Numbered from the stretch's first letter, positions 19,582-49,581 are shown. The stretch is 62,024 bases of DNA from Bacteroidales bacterium (GCA_026416115.1 JAOAFU010000206.1:1-62024), one strand, 5' to 3'. Translations and numbers: made by a program. Notes: generated by a model not told the origin, from the letters alone.

Positions 19582-22500
19582 ATGCTTAAAGTATTGAAGC
19601 ATGGGTTGCTTGTAGTTTCGTACTTATTCCAATTTTATATCGATTCGAGTGCTCAGGTTCGATTTAGGAAATTTTCAGTGGAAGATGGACTTTCGAATAA
19701 TTTTGTTCGATGTATTTTTCAGGATTCGATCGGATTTATTTGGGTAGGTACTAAAGATGGACTTAATCGTTTCGATGGCAGTGATTTTGTAAAATATTTT
19801 CATTCGGAAAACTCGCCAAATAGCATTAGCAATAATACCATTAATGTTATACAACAATTCGATTCTCGCAAGCTAATAATATGTACTTCAGGCGGAATTG
19901 ATTTTTATGATTTTTATACCGATTCGTTTACTCATAGCTCTTATTTCAAAGATAGGATTGTGCTAACCCTTTTGCGCGACACTGGTGGTTGGTATTGGGT
20001 CGGTACTTTCGATGGGCTGTATTATGCCAATTTTACTAAAAATTCTTATATCGATTTTTCTCAGAAGCCATACGACTTGATTGGACTAAAGGGCAGAATT
20101 TTTATGTGTTTCTATAAAGATACCAGAGGGCGTTTGTGGGCAGGGACCGACTCAGGTTTGAATATATTTGATCTTAGCAGAATGCATAATACAGTCGTTT
20201 TAGCTAGTTCTCGAGGAGGTCTTAGCTCTAATTATGTTCAGGATATTGAGGTAGATCCGATAGGAAATGTTTGGATAGGTACTGGACAAGGTGGACTTGA
20301 TTATTGTTTAGCCCACGAGGTAATTAAAGAAAATCCTTACATTAAAAATTATCTTCCCGGTAGTGTTATGGATATTTTGTGTTTATCCGAAAATCAAATC
20401 TGGTTTGGAAATGGATCGGGTAAGGGGCTATTTCGAATTAGAAATCCTTTCAATAGTCCCACCATTGATAAATATCTGAGTGATCCTTTTGATTTATACT
20501 CAATTAGTGATAACTCAATTGAATGCGTTTATCGAGATAAAGATGGGGGGCTCTGGATAGGTACATACGCCGGAGGTCTTAATTTTTATTCTCATCGGTT
20601 TAAAAAGTTTTATTCATCAGTTTACCCTGCATTATCCGGAAAATTAAGTAGTAATAGTGTCAATGCCTTTGTCGAGGATAATCAATTTTTATGGATAGGA
20701 ACCGAGAATGGGTTAAACCGCATCGATAAAAAAACTGGAAAGCTCAAAGTTTTTTATGCTAATGGAAAAGGTAAAATCGGGTCTAATGCTGTATATGCAC
20801 TATTTATCGATTCAAAACGCCGACTCTGGGTAGGAACATGGGCAGGGGGCTTAAATTTATATAACTACAAAACCGAAACATTTTCTACGTTTACACATGA
20901 TCCATCTAATCCTTATTCTTTGCCGAGTAATAATGTATTTACAATTAACGAAGATAGTAATCATCAGTTGTGGATAGGTACCATTCGCGGCGGATTAAGT
21001 AGATTCGACGAAAAAAATAATCGTTTTATTAACTTTACTTACAATCCTACAAAAAAAGAAGGAATATTTTCTAATTCAGTTTGTCATATTGCTCCCACTT
21101 CGGATGGAAAATTATGGATTTCAACCTATTTTTCGGCCGACTTATTTGATCCTGAAACCGAAACTTTTACACATTATACTAATATTAAGAAAACAGGTAG
21201 CGATCTTAACTATATTTTCATCGATTCGAAAGGAAATACCTGGTTTGGAAGTGAGAGTGGTTTGACAGTTATGCCTTACACTAAGCAAAATGTTAAGCAT
21301 TATTCGTACAAAGACGTATTGAAAAATATTAAAGCAATTATTGAAGATAGTAAAGGGAATTTGTGGATTAGTACGAATCGAGGACTTGTAAGGTTTGACA
21401 ACGGAGTAAATATTCCCGAAAATCCTTTTTTTACTTCATACCATATACACGACGGTTTGCAGGGAAATGATTTCAATAGAAGAGCTGTGTATAAGAATTC
21501 TGATGGAATGTTATATTTCGGAGGAGTCAATGGCTATACTTGGTTTTATCCCGATAGTATTGAACAAAATCCAATACTCCCCAAGGTATATATCGCTAAA
21601 ATACTTAATTATAATAATCTTCAGCCTATTTTGAAAGCTACGTGTTGCAATGATACTATCGTACTTAAATACGATCAGAATAATTTAATTATCGAATTTT
21701 CTTCGATTAGTTATATTGTACCTGAACATAATCATTACCGTTATCGACTAACTGGTTTTGAGAAAGCTTGGCATACAGTTACGAATCGTCAACCTGCAAT
21801 ATATACAAATCTTCAGCCCGGGAGATACACTTTCGAAATATATGCTTGCAATAATGATGACGTGTGGGGCGAAATACCTACTCGTATTACAATTATCATA
21901 AATCCTCCATGGTGGAAAACTATTTACTTTTATATTGGATTAATAACTTGTTCTATATTGACAGTAATCGGCATCTTTCGTTTGCGTTTACAAAATCTAC
22001 GAAAAATTAAAAAAGAGCTCGAGGAAATAGTTATGCGCCGTACCGAAGAATTATTGCTTGCCAATAAGCAACTTGAGGAGAGCCAAGAAGAAATTGTAGC
22101 TCAAAATAACGAGTTGGAAATGCACAGGTACCATCTCGAACAACTTGTTGAGAGTAGAACCAAAGAATTACAACAGGCCTTAAAAAGGGCTGAGGAGTCT
22201 GATAAATTAAAATCTGCTTTCCTTGCCAATATGAGTCACGAAATTCGTACTCCCATGAATGCAATTCTGGGTTTTTCAACTCTTATCGCCGAAGAAATGA
22301 TACCTCCTGATAAACGAAATGAATATCTTAACATTATCCAGAAAAATTGTGACACACTAAATGTTCTTATCAACGACATTCTCGATCTATCGATGATTGA
22401 GTCGGATCAGATAAAGTTTATATATGCCGAGGTAAATGTAACCCAACTCATGCTTGAGCTCGAGCGTCAATATCAAATTGCTAAACCCGAAAAAATTGAA

Positions 22501-23307
22501 GTGGCCTTTGTCACTAAAACTACAAATGAAATCTATACCCGTACCGATTATGTTCGACTCAAACAAATTTTAAGTAATTTGCTAGGCAATGCTATTAAAT
22601 TTACCGATGAGGGTTACGTTCATTTTGGATATCAGGTTAAAGGTAATGTTATTGAGTTTTTTGTCAAAGACACCGGTATAGGTATTGACCCGACTCAAAA
22701 AGAGCTCGTTTTTAGACCATTCGGTAAAATAAATCCCTCTCATGCCACTGTTTTATATCGTGGAACGGGTTTAGGTTTGTCGATAAGTAAAAAATTGATC
22801 GAACTGATGGGTGGTTCAATCTGGTTTGAGACAGAGGTAGGTAAAGGTACGGTCTTTTATTTTACTATACCTTACACTGCTCAAACCAATACGAAAGAGG
22901 TAATCCCTCAACAACTTACTACCCAAATTAAACTCGACCTCCACAACAAGGTGTTGATTGTTGCAGAGGATGAGACCGACAATTTTTATTTCATTAATGA
23001 GGTGTTACAACAAAGTGGTGCTAAGGTTTTATGGGCTAAAGATGGTGAAGAACTTATTTCCTTGTTGGATTCGGTAAAAAAACCCGATCTCATTTTAATG
23101 GATATAAAAATGCCCAAAATTGATGGTATTGAAGCAATTAGTTTAATAAGAGAGAGAGGATATTTTACACCTGTTATTGCTATTACTGCACACGCTTATC
23201 GTAACGAACAAATTGAAATAATGCGACACTCGTTCGATGGTTACATAGCTAAGCCCATTAAAAAAACAGAGTTGATGCGCACAATTGCTAAGTTTATTGT
23301 ACGTTAA
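19582..23307 (+). CDS. Hybrid sensor histidine kinase/response regulator with a periplasmic two-component-regulator beta-propeller and Y_Y_Y domain; no DNA-binding domain
   Basis: Repeated xxxWIGTxxGLxxF/Y propeller blades are followed by a TM helix (IYFYIGLITCSILTVIGIF) and a coiled coil. The H-box is SAFLANMSHEIRTPMN. The ATPase has the N box (NLLGNAIKFT) and G boxes (DTGIGI, GTGLGLSI). The receiver has LILMDIKMPKIDG. The protein ends after the receiver. Confidence 0.9.
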   Translation: MLKVLKHGLLVVSYLFQFYIDSSAQVRFRKFSVEDGLSNNFVRCIFQDSIGFIWVGTKDGLNRFDGSDFVKYFHSENSPNSISNNTINVIQQFDSRKLIICTSGGIDFYDFYTDSFTHSSYFKDRIVLTLLRDTGGWYWVGTFDGLYYANFTKNSYIDFSQKPYDLIGLKGRIFMCFYKDTRGRLWAGTDSGLNIFDLSRMHNTVVLASSRGGLSSNYVQDIEVDPIGNVWIGTGQGGLDYCLAHEVIKENPYIKNYLPGSVMDILCLSENQIWFGNGSGKGLFRIRNPFNSPTIDKYLSDPFDLYSISDNSIECVYRDKDGGLWIGTYAGGLNFYSHRFKKFYSSVYPALSGKLSSNSVNAFVEDNQFLWIGTENGLNRIDKKTGKLKVFYANGKGKIGSNAVYALFIDSKRRLWVGTWAGGLNLYNYKTETFSTFTHDPSNPYSLPSNNVFTINEDSNHQLWIGTIRGGLSRFDEKNNRFINFTYNPTKKEGIFSNSVCHIAPTSDGKLWISTYFSADLFDPETETFTHYTNIKKTGSDLNYIFIDSKGNTWFGSESGLTVMPYTKQNVKHYSYKDVLKNIKAIIEDSKGNLWISTNRGLVRFDNGVNIPENPFFTSYHIHDGLQGNDFNRRAVYKNSDGMLYFGGVNGYTWFYPDSIEQNPILPKVYIAKILNYNNLQPILKATCCNDTIVLKYDQNNLIIEFSSISYIVPEHNHYRYRLTGFEKAWHTVTNRQPAIYTNLQPGRYTFEIYACNNDDVWGEIPTRITIIINPPWWKTIYFYIGLITCSILTVIGIFRLRLQNLRKIKKELEEIVMRRTEELLLANKQLEESQEEIVAQNNELEMHRYHLEQLVESRTKELQQALKRAEESDKLKSAFLANMSHEIRTPMNAILGFSTLIAEEMIPPDKRNEYLNIIQKNCDTLNVLINDILDLSMIESDQIKFIYAEVNVTQLMLELERQYQIAKPEKIEVAFVTKTTNEIYTRTDYVRLKQILSNLLGNAIKFTDEGYVHFGYQVKGNVIEFFVKDTGIGIDPTQKELVFRPFGKINPSHATVLYRGTGLGLSISKKLIELMGGSIWFETEVGKGTVFYFTIPYTAQTNTKEVIPQQLTTQIKLDLHNKVLIVAEDETDNFYFINEVLQQSGAKVLWAKDGEELISLLDSVKKPDLILMDIKMPKIDGIEAISLIRERGYFTPVIAITAHAYRNEQIEIMRHSFDGYIAKPIKKTELMRTIAKFIVR

Positions 23308-34906: not shown

Positions 34907-36154
34907 TTATAATTTTTTAAAGAGAATACAGGAATTGTGACCACCAAATCCAAAAGTATTACTCATTGCTACCTTTACTTCTCTTTTCTGGGCTTTTCCA
35001 ATAGTGAGGTTTAACTTTGGATCAATTTCAGGATCCACCTGAGTAACGTTGATGGTGGGGGGTACAATATCATGAACAATAGCTAATAACGAAGCTATTG
35101 CTTCCACCGCACCTGCCGCGCCTAATAGGTGGCCAGTCATGGATTTGGTTGAGCTAATATTGAGCTTATAGGCATGCTCGCCAAAAAACTTTTGAATTGC
35201 TTTAAGTTCGGCAACGTCGCCAAGAGGGGTCGATGTACCGTGAACATTAATATAGTCGACAGCTGTTGGAGGCAAATTGGCGTCTTCGAGAGTATTCTTC
35301 ATAACCAAAACAGCACCTTCACCTTCGGGATGTGGTGCAGTTATATGATATGCATCGGCTGACATGCCGCCACCACCCACTTCTGCATATATTTTAGCAC
35401 CACGTGCCTTGGCATGTTCGTACTCTTCAAATACCAACATACCAGCACCTTCGCCCATAACAAAACCGTCTCTTGTGACATCAAAGGGACGAGAAGCTGT
35501 TTTATAATTTTCATTATTGGTTGAGAGTGCTTGAGCCGAATTAAAACCACCCATAGAGAGTTCGTTGATTGCAGCTTCAGCTCCCCCCACCACAATAGCC
35601 ACGGCCTTACCCAACCTAATGAGGTTGAAAGCGTCGACCAAGGCATGCGTGGATGATGCACACGCAGACACAGTTGCATAGTTGGGCCCTCTGAACCCGT
35701 ACTTCATAGCAACATGTCCTGCTGCAATATCACATATCATCTTCGGTACAAAAAAGGGACTAACTTTTGGTGTTCCATCGCCTAACACAAATGCTTTGGT
35801 TTCTTGAACAAAAGTATCGATACCCCCTATACCCGAAGCTATGATTACTCCCACTTTGTCTTTGTCGACTGAAGAAGAAGTGAGGCCACTGTCGGCAATG
35901 GCCTCATCTGCAGCAATTATTGCATACTGTGCATATGGATCAAGCTTCTTTACTTCCTTTCGGTCGAAATACTTACCCGGATCGTAGTTTTTAAGTTCAC
36001 AGGCAAACTGTGTTTTATGCTTACTGGGATCAAAGCGTGTGATTATATTAGCTCCGCTAACTCCGTTTATTAGTCCATTCCAGTATTCCTCAACAGTATT
36101 ACCTATTGGGGTTAAAGCTCCTAACCCCGTAACTACGACCCTTTTTAATTCCAT
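34907..36154 (-). CDS. fabF: Beta-ketoacyl-ACP synthase II
   Basis: The active-site Cys is in SACASS. The catalytic His residues are in NVHGTSTPLGD and KSMTGHLLGAAG. The C-terminus is SNTFGFGGHN. Confidence 0.95.
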   Translation of the reverse strand: MELKRVVVTGLGALTPIGNTVEEYWNGLINGVSGANIITRFDPSKHKTQFACELKNYDPGKYFDRKEVKKLDPYAQYAIIAADEAIADSGLTSSSVDKDKVGVIIASGIGGIDTFVQETKAFVLGDGTPKVSPFFVPKMICDIAAGHVAMKYGFRGPNYATVSACASSTHALVDAFNLIRLGKAVAIVVGGAEAAINELSMGGFNSAQALSTNNENYKTASRPFDVTRDGFVMGEGAGMLVFEEYEHAKARGAKIYAEVGGGGMSADAYHITAPHPEGEGAVLVMKNTLEDANLPPTAVDYINVHGTSTPLGDVAELKAIQKFFGEHAYKLNISSTKSMTGHLLGAAGAVEAIASLLAIVHDIVPPTINVTQVDPEIDPKLNLTIGKAQKREVKVAMSNTFGFGGHNSCILFKKL

Positions 36155-39402: not shown

Positions 39403-41520
39403 TTAATATTTATGTATTTGGTAGCTTAAAACTATAAACATTCTTCTTCCTGGCGATATGTTTCCTAAACTATAAGGCATTACGTTGTTAAAAAGATTGT
39501 CGATTCCTAAAGTGAAGGATAAAGTTTTGTATCTAAGCATTGAAGTAAACTTCCAGTAGTGAAATGCCGGGTCGTGATAAATTATTTCTCCAACTGGTTC
39601 GTAAGTTCGAGCTGCAGTATATCGATCGGACAAATCGAGAGTGATTTGCCAGTTCTTTTTAATCTTTAGGTTGTATGTAATACTTCCTGCAGCCGAGAAT
39701 GGTGCAACATTGTACATAGCACTATCGGTCGACAGATTGATCGAATTGATATACGACATGTTTAGGCTAAATATTAGATCTCTTAAAGGTTTCCATTTCG
39801 AAATCCAGTCTACTCCCATCACACGTGCCTTGTTGATGTTGATATATTGGAAAGTACGTTCGGCAACTAGTGTATGATATATCATGTCAGTCAATTGATT
39901 ATAATAAGCGTTGGCTGCAAATGAGAAGTTGTTTTTTCTTAATTCGACCGAGGTGCTAACATAATTAGAACGTTCGCTCTCAAGGTTTCTATTTCCTATT
40001 AGATAAAACATTCCCTGATGATCGAATTGATAGTACATTTCCTTTAAGGTTGGTGAACGAAAGCCTTGACCATATGAAGTTCTTAAAATGACAGGCTCGA
40101 AACGTAGAACAATACTCAGCGCAGGAACAATACTGTATTTACCTGTTGAGTAATAAATAGCCCGACTACCAGATACAACAGATATTTTTTTCGATATTCG
40201 ATAGTCGTTTTGCAAAAAGGCAATGAGCGTATACATATGCACATAAGGTATGGAAAGTTTTTCGGAAAATAAATTTTCATACACAAATTCCGATCCACCA
40301 GTCCAGTGACCTAAACTGTTAACCCTATCTGTCATCCATCTTAAGGTATGTAATACGTCTGATGCTGTTTTGCTATGATTATCGTTACGGTTGATCAAAA
40401 TATTGTAGTTTACAAAGCGGTCGATAGCATAGGAAAACACCATTTGAGCACTGTCGTTTTGTTTGTGCTCAATTTTTACTAAAGAACTTTGGCCTGCATA
40501 ACCATGATCGACAGCTCTTACATCTACAATGCCGTCGTAAATTCGATTATAAAAAATATTCCCCTTAATTGTTAAAGAGGTTTGTTTCGAAAAATTATAG
40601 TCGAAGCGCTGATTAAAAGCATAGTTCGAATATTTTTCTTGATTTTTTGAGTACGGTTCATTGGGGGTTAGGTCATATCCGTCGGTATGGTTTGTGGTAA
40701 TCGACGATAGGTAGGAGATTTTATTCCTTGCTCCTCCTGCATAGAGGTTAAAGTTTGTTTCATTGTACTTCGAATACCGCAATGAACTTCCTGCTTCAAA
40801 ACCACTTTGGGGTTTGCGGGTAATAAGATTTATTACACCACTTATGGCATTTGAACCATAAATTACCGAGGCTGGCCCACGCAATATTTCTATTCGGTCG
40901 ATGTTGTCCATATTTAGGCGATAATAATCAATATCTCCATCCATTTCTCCAGCCATTCTTTCTCCATCTACTAAGAACAGCATATATCGCGCTCCTAAGC
41001 CTTGATAAGTTAATTTGGGCCGATATCCAAAATTTGCTTTTTCAAGTCCGGCTATTTCACGTTCAAGTACAGAGGTAATGTTATAATTCCCCATTCTTAG
41101 CTGTTGTTCTGCTGGAACAAGTTGGGTCAAAACAGTTGTGTTTTTTATGGGTTGCATCATTCGATTAGCTGTAATAACCACAGCATCAATGTCTTCGACC
41201 GATGGCGTTAGTTTATATGTTTTTTCATGGCTACTTGAAAAAATAAAAGTATCGGTTATCGAATTATAGCCCAACATCGAAATTTCTAATATCACTCTCT
41301 CAAGACTAGGTATTGAGATTGTAAACAAACCCGAATCGTTGGTTAAGGTTACTCGATTATATGTTTTAAGCTGCACCTTTGCTCCAGCAATAGTTTCGCC
41401 TGTTTGTGCATCAATTACTTTGCCCTTAAAGTTTGATTGTGAAAATGATAATTGTACCGAAAACAACATCGGCAAGCTGATAATAAGAAGTAATACTTTT
41501 ATTTTTTTGGTAAAGGCCAT
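39403..41520 (-). CDS. TonB-dependent outer-membrane receptor (probable haem receptor given the HmuY neighbour)
   Basis: It has a signal peptide and a CarboxypepD_reg-like N-domain (GKVIDAQTGETIAGAKVQL). The plug has IEILRGPASVIYGSNAISGVINLIT. A long beta-barrel follows. I chose the ATG at 41520 (MAFTKKIKVLLL). Confidence 0.88.
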   Translation of the reverse strand: MAFTKKIKVLLLIISLPMLFSVQLSFSQSNFKGKVIDAQTGETIAGAKVQLKTYNRVTLTNDSGLFTISIPSLERVILEISMLGYNSITDTFIFSSSHEKTYKLTPSVEDIDAVVITANRMMQPIKNTTVLTQLVPAEQQLRMGNYNITSVLEREIAGLEKANFGYRPKLTYQGLGARYMLFLVDGERMAGEMDGDIDYYRLNMDNIDRIEILRGPASVIYGSNAISGVINLITRKPQSGFEAGSSLRYSKYNETNFNLYAGGARNKISYLSSITTNHTDGYDLTPNEPYSKNQEKYSNYAFNQRFDYNFSKQTSLTIKGNIFYNRIYDGIVDVRAVDHGYAGQSSLVKIEHKQNDSAQMVFSYAIDRFVNYNILINRNDNHSKTASDVLHTLRWMTDRVNSLGHWTGGSEFVYENLFSEKLSIPYVHMYTLIAFLQNDYRISKKISVVSGSRAIYYSTGKYSIVPALSIVLRFEPVILRTSYGQGFRSPTLKEMYYQFDHQGMFYLIGNRNLESERSNYVSTSVELRKNNFSFAANAYYNQLTDMIYHTLVAERTFQYININKARVMGVDWISKWKPLRDLIFSLNMSYINSINLSTDSAMYNVAPFSAAGSITYNLKIKKNWQITLDLSDRYTAARTYEPVGEIIYHDPAFHYWKFTSMLRYKTLSFTLGIDNLFNNVMPYSLGNISPGRRMFIVLSYQIHKY

Positions 41521-41540
41521 GTAATATTGTATTTTAAGTA

Positions 41541-41565
41541 GGGACATAAGTAAATCTTATGTCCC
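41541..41565 (-). promoter_or_regulatory. Intercistronic 10-bp perfect hairpin between the HmuY-like gene and the receptor gene
   Basis: GGGACATAAG (41541-41550) pairs with CTTATGTCCC (41556-41565) with a 5-nt loop. There is no clean U-run after it on the minus strand. Confidence 0.5.
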
Positions 41566-45866: not shown

Positions 45867-45973
45867 TTAAGTTTTTTCGCAAATTAAAAATAGTATTAAA
45901 ATTCAATTCAATTTCAACAAATTAGGGCACAGTTTTTGTGCAAATATGGTTAAAATATGGGAGGGGCATAGTC

Positions 45974-47149
45974 ATGAAAAAACTATTATTAATAATATTC
46001 TTGCTCTCAACTGTTTACACAGCTTGGTGCCAAGATGATATTTATTATTTTCCTTCGAAGCAGAAGAAAGAAAATACTTCTACAAAAGCAAACTCAGCGA
46101 CTGATACCAGTGGTATGACAGCCTACGAAAAATATCTTGCTCTAAAGGAACAAGGGTCGACAACTAATGAATCAACAACGGTACAAGCAGATACTGAAAA
46201 TTCTCGAAAGCCTTCCTATGTTGTTGTAAATCAGGATACCACTTCGGGTAATGTAACAATTAACAATTATTATTTCGACGACGATAGATTTGGGTTTTAT
46301 CGTCGTTTTTATTTTGATTATTATTATCCTTATTACTACGATCCTTTTCTATGGGATTATTATACGTGGTGGGGCTATCCTTATGCTGGCTTTTATGCTG
46401 GTTATTACGGATATTATGGATACTGGGGATACTATTGGGGCTATTACCCATACTATTATCCTTATTACCGAGGCTATTGGCATGGTTTTTACGATGGCTA
46501 TTACTGGCGCGATTATGTAACTGTTTATCCAAGAGAGGGCGTACGGGTTACTCCGGGTAGACGCATGGGTGGTTATGTCGATTTATCGCGACGAGAAAGT
46601 GCTTCTTATTACCCTGCACGATTCGCATCCAACGATTATTATCATGGAACCAGACGTAATGGCATTACAGCTGTTAACAATGCATCGGGTGGGGGGGATA
46701 ATGTTTCAACTCGTAGAAGCATTGCTTCAAATTCAAATTCGAGCTATACCTCTTCTTCAAGTGTTACAACCACTCGTCCATATATTTCTTCACAGACGCG
46801 GCGTACTAATTATGTTCCTACATACAATACCAATACTTCGTCTGAAAGGAGGGCATATCCAACTTCTTCTACACGCGATGATAATTATGTTGTGATTAAT
46901 AACCGTAGGGTTCGTGTAGTTGAGGTATCTCAACCAAGTACTCCAACTCCCCGTCGTTCGGGTACCTCATATACGCCTGCTGTTCGTTCGGTTTCAAATA
47001 CAAGCAATAACGATATGCCGGCTCGTAGTACTTCGACTGAAATAAAAAATAATAACCCTTCACAACCAGTATATAATCCTACTCCTACTCCTTCAACACG
47101 TAGTGGAGGTTCTGAAAGTCGACCTGGAGGAAGTGGACGAAGAAGATAA
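45974..47149 (+). CDS. Secreted low-complexity protein: Tyr/Gly/Trp/Pro-rich core followed by a Ser/Thr/Arg/Asn/Pro-rich basic tail; function unknown
   Basis: The signal peptide is MKKLLLIIFLLSTVYTAWCQ, preceded by GGAGGGG 8 nt upstream. The core reads YYYPYYYDPFLWDYYTWWGYPYAGFYAGYYGYYGYWGYYWGYYPYYYPYYRGYW. The tail ends GGSGRRR. Confidence 0.75.
   Translation: MKKLLLIIFLLSTVYTAWCQDDIYYFPSKQKKENTSTKANSATDTSGMTAYEKYLALKEQGSTTNESTTVQADTENSRKPSYVVVNQDTTSGNVTINNYYFDDDRFGFYRRFYFDYYYPYYYDPFLWDYYTWWGYPYAGFYAGYYGYYGYWGYYWGYYPYYYPYYRGYWHGFYDGYYWRDYVTVYPREGVRVTPGRRMGGYVDLSRRESASYYPARFASNDYYHGTRRNGITAVNNASGGGDNVSTRRSIASNSNSSYTSSSSVTTTRPYISSQTRRTNYVPTYNTNTSSERRAYPTSSTRDDNYVVINNRRVRVVEVSQPSTPTPRRSGTSYTPAVRSVSNTSNNDMPARSTSTEIKNNNPSQPVYNPTPTPSTRSGGSESRPGGSGRRR
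46262..46528 (+). repeat. Cryptic codon-level low-complexity DNA (TAT/TAC, GGN, TGG, CCT reiterations) encoding the Tyr-rich block
   Basis: By my count, 35 of 89 codons are Tyr. Three plus frames and one minus frame stay open across the segment (track ORFs 46260-46532, 46290-46520 and 46351-46560). Confidence 0.8.
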
Positions 47150-47181
47150 TTATTTAAAACCTTGTTATTAAAATCTTAATT

Positions 47182-48645
47182 ATGAAAAAATTTTTATCAA
47201 TTGCTACGACATTGATAGCAGGAACATATTTAATGGCACAAAGCTATCTTTCCGATGCTATCAGAGTATATGATAATTATTATAAAGGGACAGCTCGTAC
47301 CGCAGCTATGGGCAACGCATTTAGTTCGCTTGGTGGCGATATGGGTGCTATTCCTACCAATCCTGCTTCTTTAGGGGTTTACCAATCGAACGAGTTATTG
47401 TTTTCTACCGGTTTGCTTTCGTATGATAATAACAGTAGCTTTTACGGCACTTCGTATAAAGAGACGGGTTACAAATTTGATATTTCGTCTGCAGGCATTT
47501 TATTCAATCGGAAATTAGATGCCTCAGAAGATTGGAAGACAGTAAACTTTTATTTTGGATACAACAAGTTAAATAATTTGAATAGTATTTTCAGCATTCG
47601 GGGCATTACACCCAATACAACTATGATGAATGAGTTTGTTAGTTATGCCAATTCAAGCCCCAATTCTCTCGACAGCTATTTCGAACAGTTGGCCTACGAT
47701 TTATATGTTCTCGATTACGATACAATCAACAACAAGTACTTCTCACCCTATTCTGGTATTCCCTTACGTCAACAACGAAGTATTGAAACTGCAGGTTCGC
47801 TGGGCGAATTTTCTTTTGGTTTGGGTGCCAACTATAATCATGTTCTTTATTTGGGTTTTACAATCAATGCTCGTTCGGGTTATTACGAAGATGTTTATCA
47901 TCATACCGAGATAGACGTTGAAAATAAGATTACCGATTATTCTTACACCTTTAATTATCAGCTAATGACATGGGTGAATGGCTGGAATGCTAAATTTGGG
48001 ATAATTTATCGACCCATTGAGCCCCTTCGCATCGGGATAGGCATTCATACTCCCTCGGTACTGAAAATGAGGCAGGAAATGTATACTACTATGACTGCTG
48101 TAGACGATAATGGCCAAACATGGTCGGCAGAACCTAAAGACTCGAGAGGTAATAATTTGGGGAATTTTTTAGATCGATATACTTTTACTACTCCCTTCCG
48201 TACTGTAATAGGTGTATCGTATTTATTTGGTGAAAGGGGTTTAGTTAGTGTTGATTACGAACGTGCGGATTACAGTCGAATAAAAGTCACTTCTGCCGAT
48301 GATCAAAATGCTAAAGATTACACGAATGATGATGTAAAATCTTTCCTTAAGGCAACCAACAATTTAAGAGCTGGTGGAGAGCTTAAATTGAATAGTTTTT
48401 ACATTCGAGGCGGTTTATCATATTATCAAAGTCCATATAAATCGGGTCAGATTAACGATAAGGCCAATACTTATATCTATAGTGGAGGTATTGGTTACCG
48501 AACGAAAAGTATTGTTATCGATTTTGCATATACATTAACTCAACGTTCCGAGAAGTATTACTTGTACGACGATAACAACCTCTATCCTGCTAAATTAGAA
48601 ACTGGTGTTGGAAGCTATTTACTTACTTTTGGTTTACGTTTTTAG
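47182..48645 (+). CDS. FadL/TodX/PorV-like outer-membrane beta-barrel protein
   Basis: It has a signal peptide. The N-terminal hatch-like motif GTARTAAMGNAFSSLGGDMGAIPTNPASLG matches the FadL-family pattern. It has amphipathic strands and ends LLTFGLRF. It starts 32 nt after the Tyr-rich gene. Confidence 0.65.
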   Translation: MKKFLSIATTLIAGTYLMAQSYLSDAIRVYDNYYKGTARTAAMGNAFSSLGGDMGAIPTNPASLGVYQSNELLFSTGLLSYDNNSSFYGTSYKETGYKFDISSAGILFNRKLDASEDWKTVNFYFGYNKLNNLNSIFSIRGITPNTTMMNEFVSYANSSPNSLDSYFEQLAYDLYVLDYDTINNKYFSPYSGIPLRQQRSIETAGSLGEFSFGLGANYNHVLYLGFTINARSGYYEDVYHHTEIDVENKITDYSYTFNYQLMTWVNGWNAKFGIIYRPIEPLRIGIGIHTPSVLKMRQEMYTTMTAVDDNGQTWSAEPKDSRGNNLGNFLDRYTFTTPFRTVIGVSYLFGERGLVSVDYERADYSRIKVTSADDQNAKDYTNDDVKSFLKATNNLRAGGELKLNSFYIRGGLSYYQSPYKSGQINDKANTYIYSGGIGYRTKSIVIDFAYTLTQRSEKYYLYDDNNLYPAKLETGVGSYLLTFGLRF

Positions 48646-48651
48646 TGGGAT

Positions 48652-49581
48652 CTAAAATAGGTTACGTCTTCGGAATATTAAAAGACTAACAAACGAAAGT
48701 ATAAGAGAACCTATAACCACGTAAAAAAAGGCATATCTAGAATCTTCGAAGTGATTATTTAAGTTCATCCCGAAATAGCTTGCAATAAGCGTTGGGATCA
48801 TCAGGATAATGGTTATAGAGGTAAGTTGCTTCATCACATCGTTGAGGTTATTAGAAATAATCGATGCAAAAGCATCCATCAGATTAGCTTGAATGTCGCT
48901 ATATATTTGTGACATTTCAATTGCCTGTTTTATTTCAATTACAACATCAGCTAATAGATCTTCATTTAGATCGGGGCTACTGGCAAAACGAGAACGTTGA
49001 AGTTTCTGAAGCAAAAGCTCATTTGATTTAAGCGAAGTTATGAAAAACACCAGACACTTTTCCATTCGCATGAGATTCTGGAGTTCTTTGTTATGCGTCG
49101 AACGCTCGATACGTTTTTCAATATGGGTAGTACGAACGTTGATATCTTTTAGATAATGCAAATAAAGACTTGCCGAACGGTGAAAAATCTCGAGTACAAA
49201 ATTAATTTTGTTTTCAATCTGTATTGCCTTTGTTTTAACTGGATAAAGGATGCTTCGAATAACATCATTCTCATAAAGGCATATAGTTACTATAGTATGT
49301 GGAGATATGAGAATTCCCAAAGGTACTGTTACATAAGGAACGTTACTGTCTGTTCGGAAAACTGGTATACGAATAATTATCATCAGCCATCGTCCTTCGC
49401 CTTCGGTACGTGAACGTTCGTCGACGTCGAGGATATCGTTAATGTAATCGATAGGAATCCTCAACTCGTTTACAAGTCGATCTATTTCTTCAGGTGTAGG
49501 ATCGGTTACATTGATCCAGCATCCTTTTTCAAATTCATCTATTTCTATAAGTCTATTGGTTTGTTTCCAAATGGTCAGCAT
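48652..49581 (-). CDS. corA: CorA-family divalent cation (Mg/Co/Ni) transporter
   Basis: The cytoplasmic N-domain is followed by two C-terminal TM helices. The GMN signature appears in IASYFGMNLN. Confidence 0.88.
   Translation of the reverse strand: MLTIWKQTNRLIEIDEFEKGCWINVTDPTPEEIDRLVNELRIPIDYINDILDVDERSRTEGEGRWLMIIIRIPVFRTDSNVPYVTVPLGILISPHTIVTICLYENDVIRSILYPVKTKAIQIENKINFVLEIFHRSASLYLHYLKDINVRTTHIEKRIERSTHNKELQNLMRMEKCLVFFITSLKSNELLLQKLQRSRFASSPDLNEDLLADVVIEIKQAIEMSQIYSDIQANLMDAFASIISNNLNDVMKQLTSITIILMIPTLIASYFGMNLNNHFEDSRYAFFYVVIGSLILSFVSLLIFRRRNLF

Follow-up and report, generated by a model that had tools for sequence, protein, structure and literature searches.

A conserved Bacteroidota gene pair encoding a FadL-type outer-membrane barrel and a predicted disordered, tyrosine- and arginine-rich exported partner

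The Bacteroidota, which include important bacteria of the gut, the mouth and the environment, build their outer membrane differently from the Escherichia coli model. Work published in 2025 established FadL-like barrels as structural subunits of the Bacteroidota β-barrel assembly machinery (BAM) (PMC12578637, PMC12611786). The N-terminus of BamH is described as wedged into the FadL-like barrel BamG, BamG2 and BamH2 are placed in a putative operon, and two of the four FadL paralogues of Bacteroides thetaiotaomicron are BAM-related (PMC12578637); the BAM structures used for comparison were PDB 9HIV, 9HJM and 9N2D (PMC12578637, PMC12611786). Pairs of a barrel and a (lipo)protein are a known theme of the phylum, and FadL-like barrels are likewise known. 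The pair analysed here lies in a 62,024-nt stretch of DNA from a Bacteroidales bacterium (GCA_026416115.1, JAOAFU010000206.1:1-62024; the window) and consists of an upstream open reading frame (ORF), ORF1, which encodes a tyrosine-rich exported protein (the partner), and a downstream frame, ORF2, which encodes a FadL-type barrel. Both the barrel subfamily and the partner family are undescribed in the resources queried, none of which assigns a function to either gene. The features of the pair, numbered from the first letter of the window, are the following.

45958..45965, plus strand: Shine-Dalgarno-like element GGGAGGGG, 9-16 nt upstream of the ORF1 ATG
45974..47149, plus strand: partner gene ORF1, stop codon included; by ORF and translation, a 391-aa exported protein, predicted to be intrinsically disordered
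45974..46033, plus strand: signal peptide, aa 1-20 (MKKLLLIIFLLSTVYTAWCQ region), of the signal peptidase I type
46034..46048, plus strand: DDIYY motif, aa 21-25, at the mature N-terminus; the most conserved motif of the family
46034..46261, plus strand: polar, net-acidic head, aa 21-96, opening QDDIYYFPSK
46262..46531, plus strand: aromatic block, aa 97-186 (90 aa), the most constrained part of the gene
46532..47146, plus strand: basic tail, aa 187-391 (205 aa), predicted disordered and rich in Ser, Thr, Arg, Asn and Pro
47126-47146, plus strand: GGSGRRR terminus of the partner
47150..47181, no strand: AT-rich spacer of 32 nt between ORF1 and ORF2
47182..48645, plus strand: barrel gene ORF2, stop included, encoding a 487-aa outer-membrane protein and starting 32 nt after the ORF1 stop
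47242..47391, plus strand: N-terminal extension (aa 21-35) and hatch domain (aa 36-70; GTARTAAMGNAFSSLGGDMGAIPTNPASLGVYQSN) of the barrel
47359-47367, plus strand: NPA motif, N60-P61-A62 of the barrel

Conservation of the gene pair

The distribution of the pair was sampled in genomes, one for each GTDB species, with a degenerate DNA pattern that corresponds to the barrel motif KxGxIxxPxxxxRxGxxxHxP[TS]. At least 120 loci were obtained, in records labelled Bacteroidota or with pair genes matching the family, and the groups represented included Bacteroidales, Chitinophagaceae, Flavobacteriales, Saprospiraceae, Lentimicrobiaceae, Prolixibacteraceae, Muribaculaceae, Rikenellaceae and Prevotellaceae. 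All of the motif-bearing ORFs (119/119) aligned with the window barrel, over the full length if complete and otherwise over the part within the locus. An earlier sequence-only reading of this DNA, which proposed that the two genes could act together, had set absence of the pair from other genomes beforehand as one of its refutation tests. Instead, a same-strand partner-type ORF lay directly upstream of the barrel at 75 of the 76 loci with enough upstream DNA, across several orders; the partner type was called by a block rich in aromatic residues and a Ser/Thr/Arg/Asn/Gly tail, in most cases with a basic end. Related loci are labelled L001, L002 and so on. The one exception among the 76 was L114, a Lentimicrobiaceae metagenome-assembled genome (MAG) in which the partner is not upstream of the barrel. 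The upstream ORF on this 3869-base contig encodes 514 aa and resembles an unrelated cytoplasmic enzyme.

The order partner then barrel was kept in the close relative L001 and also in L002 and L003, which have different flanks. The barrels of L005, L006 and L008 are 32-44% identical to that of the window, and the genes upstream of them encode the same partner layout; these partners were not among the matches of a word-indexed search. Consistent with cotranscription, no convincing terminator was found in the ORF1-ORF2 spacer by a promoter/terminator scan, and since the spacer is short and the order, strand and short gaps recur at the 75 loci, ORF1 and ORF2 likely form an operon. Four cultured isolates were in the scan (Chitinophaga filiformis, Mangrovibacterium lignilyticum, Butyricimonas muris and Flavitalea sp.), and the pair is therefore accessible to ordinary genetics. 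Together with the selection on ORF1 described below, these sequence comparisons identify the two genes as a real, selected module conserved across Bacteroidota.

The gene for prolyl-tRNA synthetase, proS, neighbours the pair in 48 of 127 loci and is divergently transcribed in L005 (L005:2678-4150) and L008 (L008:3008-4483). In the window lineage, the pair instead lies between an amino-acid permease gene and a CorA-type gene. No metabolic neighbour of the pair was conserved, proS alone recurring. Two MAG labels appeared doubtful: L008 (GCA_046538755.1, 'Thiohalospira sp.') bears a Bacteroidota-type pair beside proS, and the nearest named proteins to the barrel of L041 ('Bacteroides sp.') are from Muribaculaceae. 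When a barrel from a MAG labelled 'Bacteroides sp.' was used to look for a named orthologue in a model organism, all matches were unnamed or Muribaculaceae proteins.

The barrel

The structure of the barrel was predicted with AlphaFold2 (AF2) on an alignment of 35 homologues. The model had a predicted local distance difference test score (pLDDT) of 91 and a predicted template-modelling score (pTM) of 0.85, and contained 14 long strands after an N-terminal non-barrel segment. A Foldseek comparison of the model with the PDB, with 50 matches listed, included the following (TM, template-modelling score).

BamG of B. thetaiotaomicron (9hiv_F): rank 1, E = 2.5e-19, TM 0.56/0.65, 17% identity
BamG of Porphyromonas gingivalis (9hjm_F): rank 2, E = 3.3e-16, TM 0.54/0.65, 15% identity
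BAM chain B of Flavobacterium johnsoniae (9n2d_B): rank 6, E = 1.4e-14, TM 0.54/0.65, 11% identity
FadL, TodX and TbuX (wild-type and point-mutant entries): E = 1e-15 to 1e-12, TM 0.48-0.56 / 0.56-0.65
PorV (8gl6_F): E = 1e-6, TM 0.31

The barrel is thus predicted with confidence to have a hatch-plugged, 14-stranded FadL fold. At the level of sequence, 690 barrel homologues were retrieved in the first search, many of them with PF03349 and several named 'OmpP1/FadL family transporter'. The window barrel itself had no Pfam match at E <= 1 and so did not reach the PF03349 gathering threshold. In a PDB search with the barrel family profile, TbuX was the sole structure detected (E = 2.5e-7), and no BamG chain in the PDB was found at E <= 10, either by phmmer with the window barrel or by hmmsearch with the profile. 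Orthology to BamG was rejected on this basis. Because homologues of 31-36% identity carry PF03349 and the profile detects TbuX, the barrel is assigned as a divergent FadL subfamily; judged by its sequence relationships, it is a distinct, long subfamily of the FadL superfamily.

Conservation peaked in the hatch (score 0.70 vs 0.43 for the barrel overall), in which N60 and P61 were invariant in alignments of 35 and 103 sequences. The approximately 15 residues (aa 21-35) ahead of the conserved GTAR start of the hatch were moderately conserved, with D25 at 0.84, and the least conserved regions were the extracellular loops and periplasmic turns.

The sequence-only reading had called a 487-aa barrel 32 nt downstream of the Tyr-rich gene and had likened its N-terminus to FadL, TodX and PorV. 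The gene stands as called and the AF2 model and Foldseek matches support the FadL fold, but the PorV analogy fell: against the TM of 0.56 for BamG and FadL, PorV scored 0.31, and the NCBIfam PorV2 model gave a sub-threshold match of 21 bits (cut-off 325) over the C-terminal 60 residues only. Searches of Pfam and NCBIfam with the window partner and six diverse partners revealed no Por_Secre_tail or other C-terminal domain of the type IX secretion system (T9SS). A PorV-type shuttle was accordingly rejected.

The partner and its translation signal

The reading frame of ORF1 opens with the ATG at 45974 and closes with the stop codon at 47147-47149. Initiation at the in-frame GTG at 45938 would lengthen the product by 12 residues, but the homologues all begin at the MK(K/T) position. 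Within the DDIYY motif, D21, D22 and Y24 were invariant in homologue alignment A1. The conserved head segment DTSGMTxYEKYRALKE holds a short predicted helix (aa 50-61). The aromatic block comprises 35 Tyr, 11 Gly, 8 Phe, 7 Trp and 6 Pro and contains the conserved motifs NNYYFDDDRF, YRRF and YYDPF. Given the 4.8% Tyr background of the other 42 long window ORFs, at least 35 Tyr in 90 residues has a binomial P of 6e-23, and the Tyr-richest 90-aa stretch of any other window ORF held 13. The tail (36 Ser, 30 Arg, 26 Thr, 20 Asn and 17 Pro) has a net charge of +18. AF2 predicted the partner to be disordered throughout (mean pLDDT 39) except for the signal helix and the helix at aa 50-61, and the prediction offered no fold usable for structure search. 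These data agree with the sequence-only reading, which had described a signal peptide, a polar head of about 75 aa, a block with 35 Tyr and a Ser/Thr/Arg/Asn/Pro tail of about 200 residues ending GGSGRRR.

Several lesser features of ORF1 were recorded. D88 in the head is nearly invariant and is followed in most homologues by Ser/Thr and then Thr/Val/Ser (DTT in the window, aa 88-90, 46235-46243). The O-glycosylation motif of Bacteroidota is D-(S/T)-(A/I/L/V/M/T), and D88 fits it as a candidate site. No protein-level repeats were present in the partner alignment, and an origin of the Tyr block from DNA tandem repeats was rejected, the tandem-repeat check of the DNA being negative. Four ORFs of 69-108 aa overlap the Tyr block and the start of the tail (46260-46560) in other frames and on the minus strand; they are by-products of the TAT/TAC-rich coding sequence and not genes. 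A terminator-like 12-bp hairpin followed by a T-run at 46277-46307 (plus strand) encodes DDDRFGFYRRF and is probably a side effect of this conserved peptide motif.

The word-indexed search returned 11 full-length homologues of the partner, and a profile of these, run against 1.84 billion proteins, detected 1112 cluster representatives at E <= 1e-3, with 258 at the stricter E <= 1e-10. The alignment consists of conserved short motifs (QDDIYYxPSK, DTSGMTxYEKYRALKE, NNYYFDDDRF, YYDPF, PGRRMGGY, TTRPY, PRRSxxSYTP and the terminal GxGRRR) amid variable low-complexity sequence. No Pfam or NCBIfam family matched the window partner or six diverse relatives, in agreement with the initial impression that the protein belongs to no characterised family. 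Every family member in the homologue list and cluster look-ups bore the source name 'hypothetical protein', and a literature search by theme and motif string returned no description of the gene pair.

The anatomy of the family was examined in 78 members. DDxY was present in all (78/78), YDPFY-like motifs in 52 and YxxR[IL]xRF in 37. At least 51 of the 78, about two thirds, carry a lipobox/lipoprotein signal, with 11-12 residues between the lipid Cys and DD in 39 of the 51; in the non-lipoprotein partners, a signal peptidase I signal ends right before the motif (AQ|DDIYY). In every member the head was acidic (median net charge -7) and the tail basic (median +18, minimum +7); the C-terminus was basic in most. 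The richest 60-residue window contained a median of 26.5 aromatic residues, and tail length ranged from 88 to 363 residues. The partner is accordingly predicted to be Sec-exported and lipid-anchored in most lineages, with a fixed order of blocks: DDxYY, acidic head, Tyr/Trp/Gly-rich aromatic core and long basic Ser/Thr/Arg/Asn/Gly tail with arginines at its end. The partners of Chitinophagaceae (L011, L022, L038, L042, L054, L062) are much shorter, at 213-300 aa, with a near-invariant start after the lipid Cys, C-STAYKTGQTPDDVYYSP, and an end that is often PVR(S/T)F(K/R)R and not GRRR; they form a distinct subfamily.

By the published criterion, a Bacteroidota lipoprotein is assigned to the surface if positions +1 to +6 after the Cys include two or more acidic residues (PMC12578637). 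In contrast, 50 of the 51 lipoprotein partners had no acidic residue at these positions.

Selection on ORF1, the lack of which the sequence-only reading had made part of a refuting condition, was measured as the proportions of nonsynonymous (pN) and synonymous (pS) differences from the L001 orthologue, whose partner is 67% identical.

Partner, whole gene: pN 0.20, pS 0.73
Partner, aromatic block: pN 0.09, pS 0.67
Partner, head: pN 0.23, pS 0.67
Partner, tail: pN 0.23, pS 0.77
Barrel gene: pN 0.17, pS 0.82
Neighbouring permease gene: pN 0.10, pS 0.78

Synonymous sites were near saturation and all indels between the two partners were in frame. The pN of the aromatic block was on a par with that of the permease gene, and ORF1 therefore encodes a real protein under strong purifying selection.

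The initial reading had also remarked on a strong GGAGG-like element before ORF1 as uncommon in Bacteroidota. Indeed, a strong Shine-Dalgarno (SD) core, defined as GGAGG, AGGAG and similar sequences 4-22 nt upstream of the start codon, preceded 22 of the 78 partner genes (28%) as opposed to 12 of the 555 other ORFs that reach 200 aa at these loci (2%; Fisher P = 1e-13), and among the 42 long ORFs of the window it occurred at ORF1 only. SD cores precede the partners of L001, L002, L005, L006, L008, L012, L050 and L056, and further those of L075, L076, L103, L106, L110, L124-L126 and others. Ribosomes of Bacteroidia keep the anti-SD sequestered and do not respond to SD sequences except when bS21 is missing, and a regulatory role at rpsU and rpsR has been ascribed to strong SDs in this class (PMC9976891). 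Because SDs are normally ignored, their presence before partner genes suggests special translational control. The partner gene may thus be a non-ribosomal target of ribosomes lacking bS21, a candidate extension of a specialised-ribosome control so far described for rpsU.

Outside the pair, the window is ordinary Bacteroidales chromosome, and the flanks of the pair (the amino-acid permease, the convergent CorA-type gene, and YebC and NmrA-like genes) are unrelated to it. The CorA-type magnesium transporter gene (48652-49581, minus strand) lies directly 3' of the barrel gene, and the same gene is found 3' of the barrel in L001:10822-11751, L002:4568-5497 and L006:7482-8411; in L002 it is kept downstream although the upstream genes differ. 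A G+C peak at 35-36 kb (0.45 vs about 0.36) corresponds to a beta-ketoacyl synthase gene (34907-36154, minus strand). The window also encodes a 1241-aa hybrid two-component regulator (19582-23307, plus strand) and a TonB-dependent receptor (39403-41547, minus strand), which adjoins an HmuY gene in the syntenic locus L001. Scans of the window for tRNAs and Rfam families were both empty, and the promoter/terminator scan, made with a tool that has no Bacteroidota promoter model, gave consensus matches at chance level only.

Interpretation and comparison with known systems

The reading we favour, with a probability of about 0.35, is that the partner is a disordered protein docked onto the barrel and facing the periplasm, where its multivalent contacts would give rise to a layer, cohesive or tethering, beneath the outer membrane. 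DDxYY, which either opens the mature chain or follows the lipid Cys by 11-12 residues, would dock the partner onto the co-encoded barrel: its constant distance from the N-terminus or lipid anchor points to docking onto a membrane protein, for which this barrel is the simplest candidate, and the idea takes its precedent from the reported hold of BamG on the BamH N-terminus and from the BamG2-BamH2 operon. The partner would stay on the periplasmic face of the outer membrane, the most likely side given that the lipoprotein partners carry no acidic export signal. There, the aromatic core and the Arg-rich tail could engage in multivalent aromatic and cation-pi contacts, whether mutual or with membrane interfaces or anionic polymers of the envelope, and such contacts could produce the cohesive or tethering layer. 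In part of the phylum, the SD element would place the partner under special translational control.

Several points weigh against this reading. Docking is suggested by the position of the motif and the BamH precedent, and the localisation by a single sequence rule, that of the lipoprotein export signal, which has exceptions and does not apply directly to the non-lipidated members, among them the window partner with its signal of the signal peptidase I type. The periplasmic turns and extracellular loops of the barrel are both poorly conserved, so that no docking surface is evident. The conserved hatch and NPA motif are those of a working FadL-type channel, and transport would fit them at least as well as anchoring; self-association or condensation of the partner is suggested by composition alone. 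Finally, the window sequence was found in no RNA run, and the one run that holds it is DNA from a hot-spring metagenome. For the Muribaculaceae orthologue pair L032, both genes were covered by contigs of three mouse-gut metatranscriptome runs and also in a fourth, probable RNA run, which is modest evidence of transcription because DNA carry-over is possible.

Export of the partner to the cell surface, along the lines of the sequence-only reading, is possible but somewhat disfavoured by the sequence features. The barrel would then serve as a dedicated conduit or surface anchor, with the unfolded partner passing through or beside it; outside, the Tyr block would self-assemble or cross-link, and a matrix or adhesive layer would result as the tail binds lipopolysaccharide, capsule or extracellular DNA. 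Export of unfolded amyloid subunits by barrels does occur (FapF for FapC, CsgG for CsgA), a fully disordered partner, as predicted by AF2, could fit through a narrow channel, and the gene pairing is tight phylum-wide. Moreover, BamG, the nearest structural kin, is reported to hold a surface lipoprotein by its N-terminus (PMC12578637), and Bacteroidota BamA, as far as described, has a flexible Tyr/Gly/Asn-rich extracellular loop, so that such sequences occur outside. However, the acidic export signal is lacking in all but one of the 51 lipoprotein partners, the barrel lumen is plugged by a highly conserved hatch, PorV-type shuttling is unsupported for a partner lacking the T9SS domain, and a phylum-wide pair often found beside the housekeeping gene proS suggests core envelope biology and not a niche adhesin. 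We hold as rather doubtful a role of the barrel as a FadL/TodX-type channel for a lipid or other hydrophobic molecule, with the aromatic partner capturing, passing on or retaining the substrate. The hatch and NPA motif, the most conserved part of the barrel, are needed for transport in E. coli FadL; the toluene channel TbuX is the only solved relative found by the family profile, PF03349 is carried by many homologues, and the Foldseek scores of FadL and TodX are near those of BamG. Yet no FadL-family transporter is known to us to need a disordered partner, substrate binding would leave unexplained both the variation in tail length and the invariant layout of charge blocks, and no metabolic gene is conserved beside the pair.

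Less probable still is that the pair forms a third unit of the BamG/BamH kind on BamA or another large complex, the Tyr/Gly block acting on unfolded outer-membrane proteins or lipoproteins, for instance as a holdase or by mimicking their aromatic C-terminal signals. The BamG proteins of three species stand at Foldseek ranks 1, 2 and 6, some 15 residues with moderate conservation precede the hatch of the barrel, where a conserved stretch is also described for BamG, half of the B. thetaiotaomicron FadL paralogues are reported to be BAM-related, and the Tyr/Gly/Asn composition of the partner resembles that of BamA extracellular loop 3 as described. Against this, the family profile detects no PDB chain of BamG, the barrels are 60-150 residues longer than BamG, the partner is not of the BamH family DUF4270 and is without a surface-export signal, and no such disordered protein is among the BAM subunits described in the portions of PMC12578637 and PMC12611786 used here. 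That the genes have no joint function, being mere neighbours or, in the case of ORF1, a fast-evolving low-complexity filler, would accord with a partner that is mostly low-complexity and whose tail diverges fast in length and sequence. Against it stand the maintained order, strand and short gaps in several orders, the invariant motifs of the partner and the low pN of the aromatic block beside near-saturated synonymous sites, and the conservation data leave it close to refuted.

The module adds a second widely conserved FadL-type barrel to Bacteroidota, almost always accompanied by an unannotated partner of extreme composition. If the pair has a role in envelope integrity or biogenesis, it would be a missing component of the picture of the Bacteroidota outer membrane, and a rare bacterial case of a wholly disordered Tyr/Arg-rich protein with a conserved structural role. 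A bolder reading, which we consider unlikely, would make the partner the founding member of a new class of envelope proteins across Bacteroidota: a fully disordered 'sticker' protein of Tyr/Trp and Arg, kept at the outer membrane by a FadL-type barrel of its own and forming a gel or condensate layer with a part in envelope cohesion or outer-membrane biogenesis. Its synthesis would be gated, in part of the phylum, by ribosomes without bS21, which can read SD sequences.

Among the closest described systems are BamG-BamH and BamG2-BamH2. They share with it a Bacteroidota-specific, 14-stranded FadL-fold barrel, BamG being the best structural match of the window barrel, and an exported partner with a conserved N-terminus near the lipid anchor, which in BamH is reported to be held by the barrel; BamG2 and BamH2 are also described as adjacent genes. 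Both barrels have a stretch ahead of the hatch; that of BamG, a conserved N-terminal extension of about 10-12 residues, is described as passing through the lateral opening. The systems differ in that the sequence relationship between the barrels is undetectable (E <= 10) and the present family is longer by the 60-150 residues given above. BamH is described as a surface lipoprotein of the DUF4270 family that is folded and carries an acidic export signal, whereas the partner is predicted to be disordered, with no known domain and without the signal. BamG-BamH binds BamA, a placement that the present pair would have only under the less probable reading above.

FadL, TodX and TbuX (PF03349) share the fold, the hatch domain and the NPA motif with the barrel, and are tied to it by the profile match to TbuX and the PF03349 scores of many homologues. 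The window barrel differs from them in reaching no Pfam threshold and in having about 60 more loop residues and a longer N-terminus. We know of no characterised FadL-family transporter encoded with a disordered partner, as this barrel is. PorV is, like the barrel, a FadL-superfamily barrel of Bacteroidota, and it binds secreted proteins, but its structural and PorV2 scores are low and the partner has no T9SS C-terminal domain.

In FapF-FapC and CsgG-CsgA, an outer-membrane barrel serves an aggregation-prone, low-complexity secreted protein that crosses it unfolded, and the genes are encoded together as in the present pair. FapF and CsgG were absent from the 50 Foldseek matches listed, however, the partner has no imperfect amyloid repeats, and the sequence rules count against its exposure at the surface. 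In the phase-separating FUS-family proteins of eukaryotes, Tyr and Arg residues drive condensation, and like the partner these proteins combine a Tyr/Gly-rich and an Arg/Gly/Ser-rich block, both disordered, in one chain; the resemblance is compositional only, and the partner is a bacterial envelope protein without an RNA-binding domain and not a nuclear RNA-binding protein. LpoB and RcsF of E. coli are outer-membrane lipoproteins in which a disordered linker spans the periplasm or threads a barrel, and they share with the partner a lipid anchor followed by a disordered stretch. Unlike the partner, which is predicted to be wholly disordered and is unanchored in a third of the family, they have a folded end domain and an ordinary composition.

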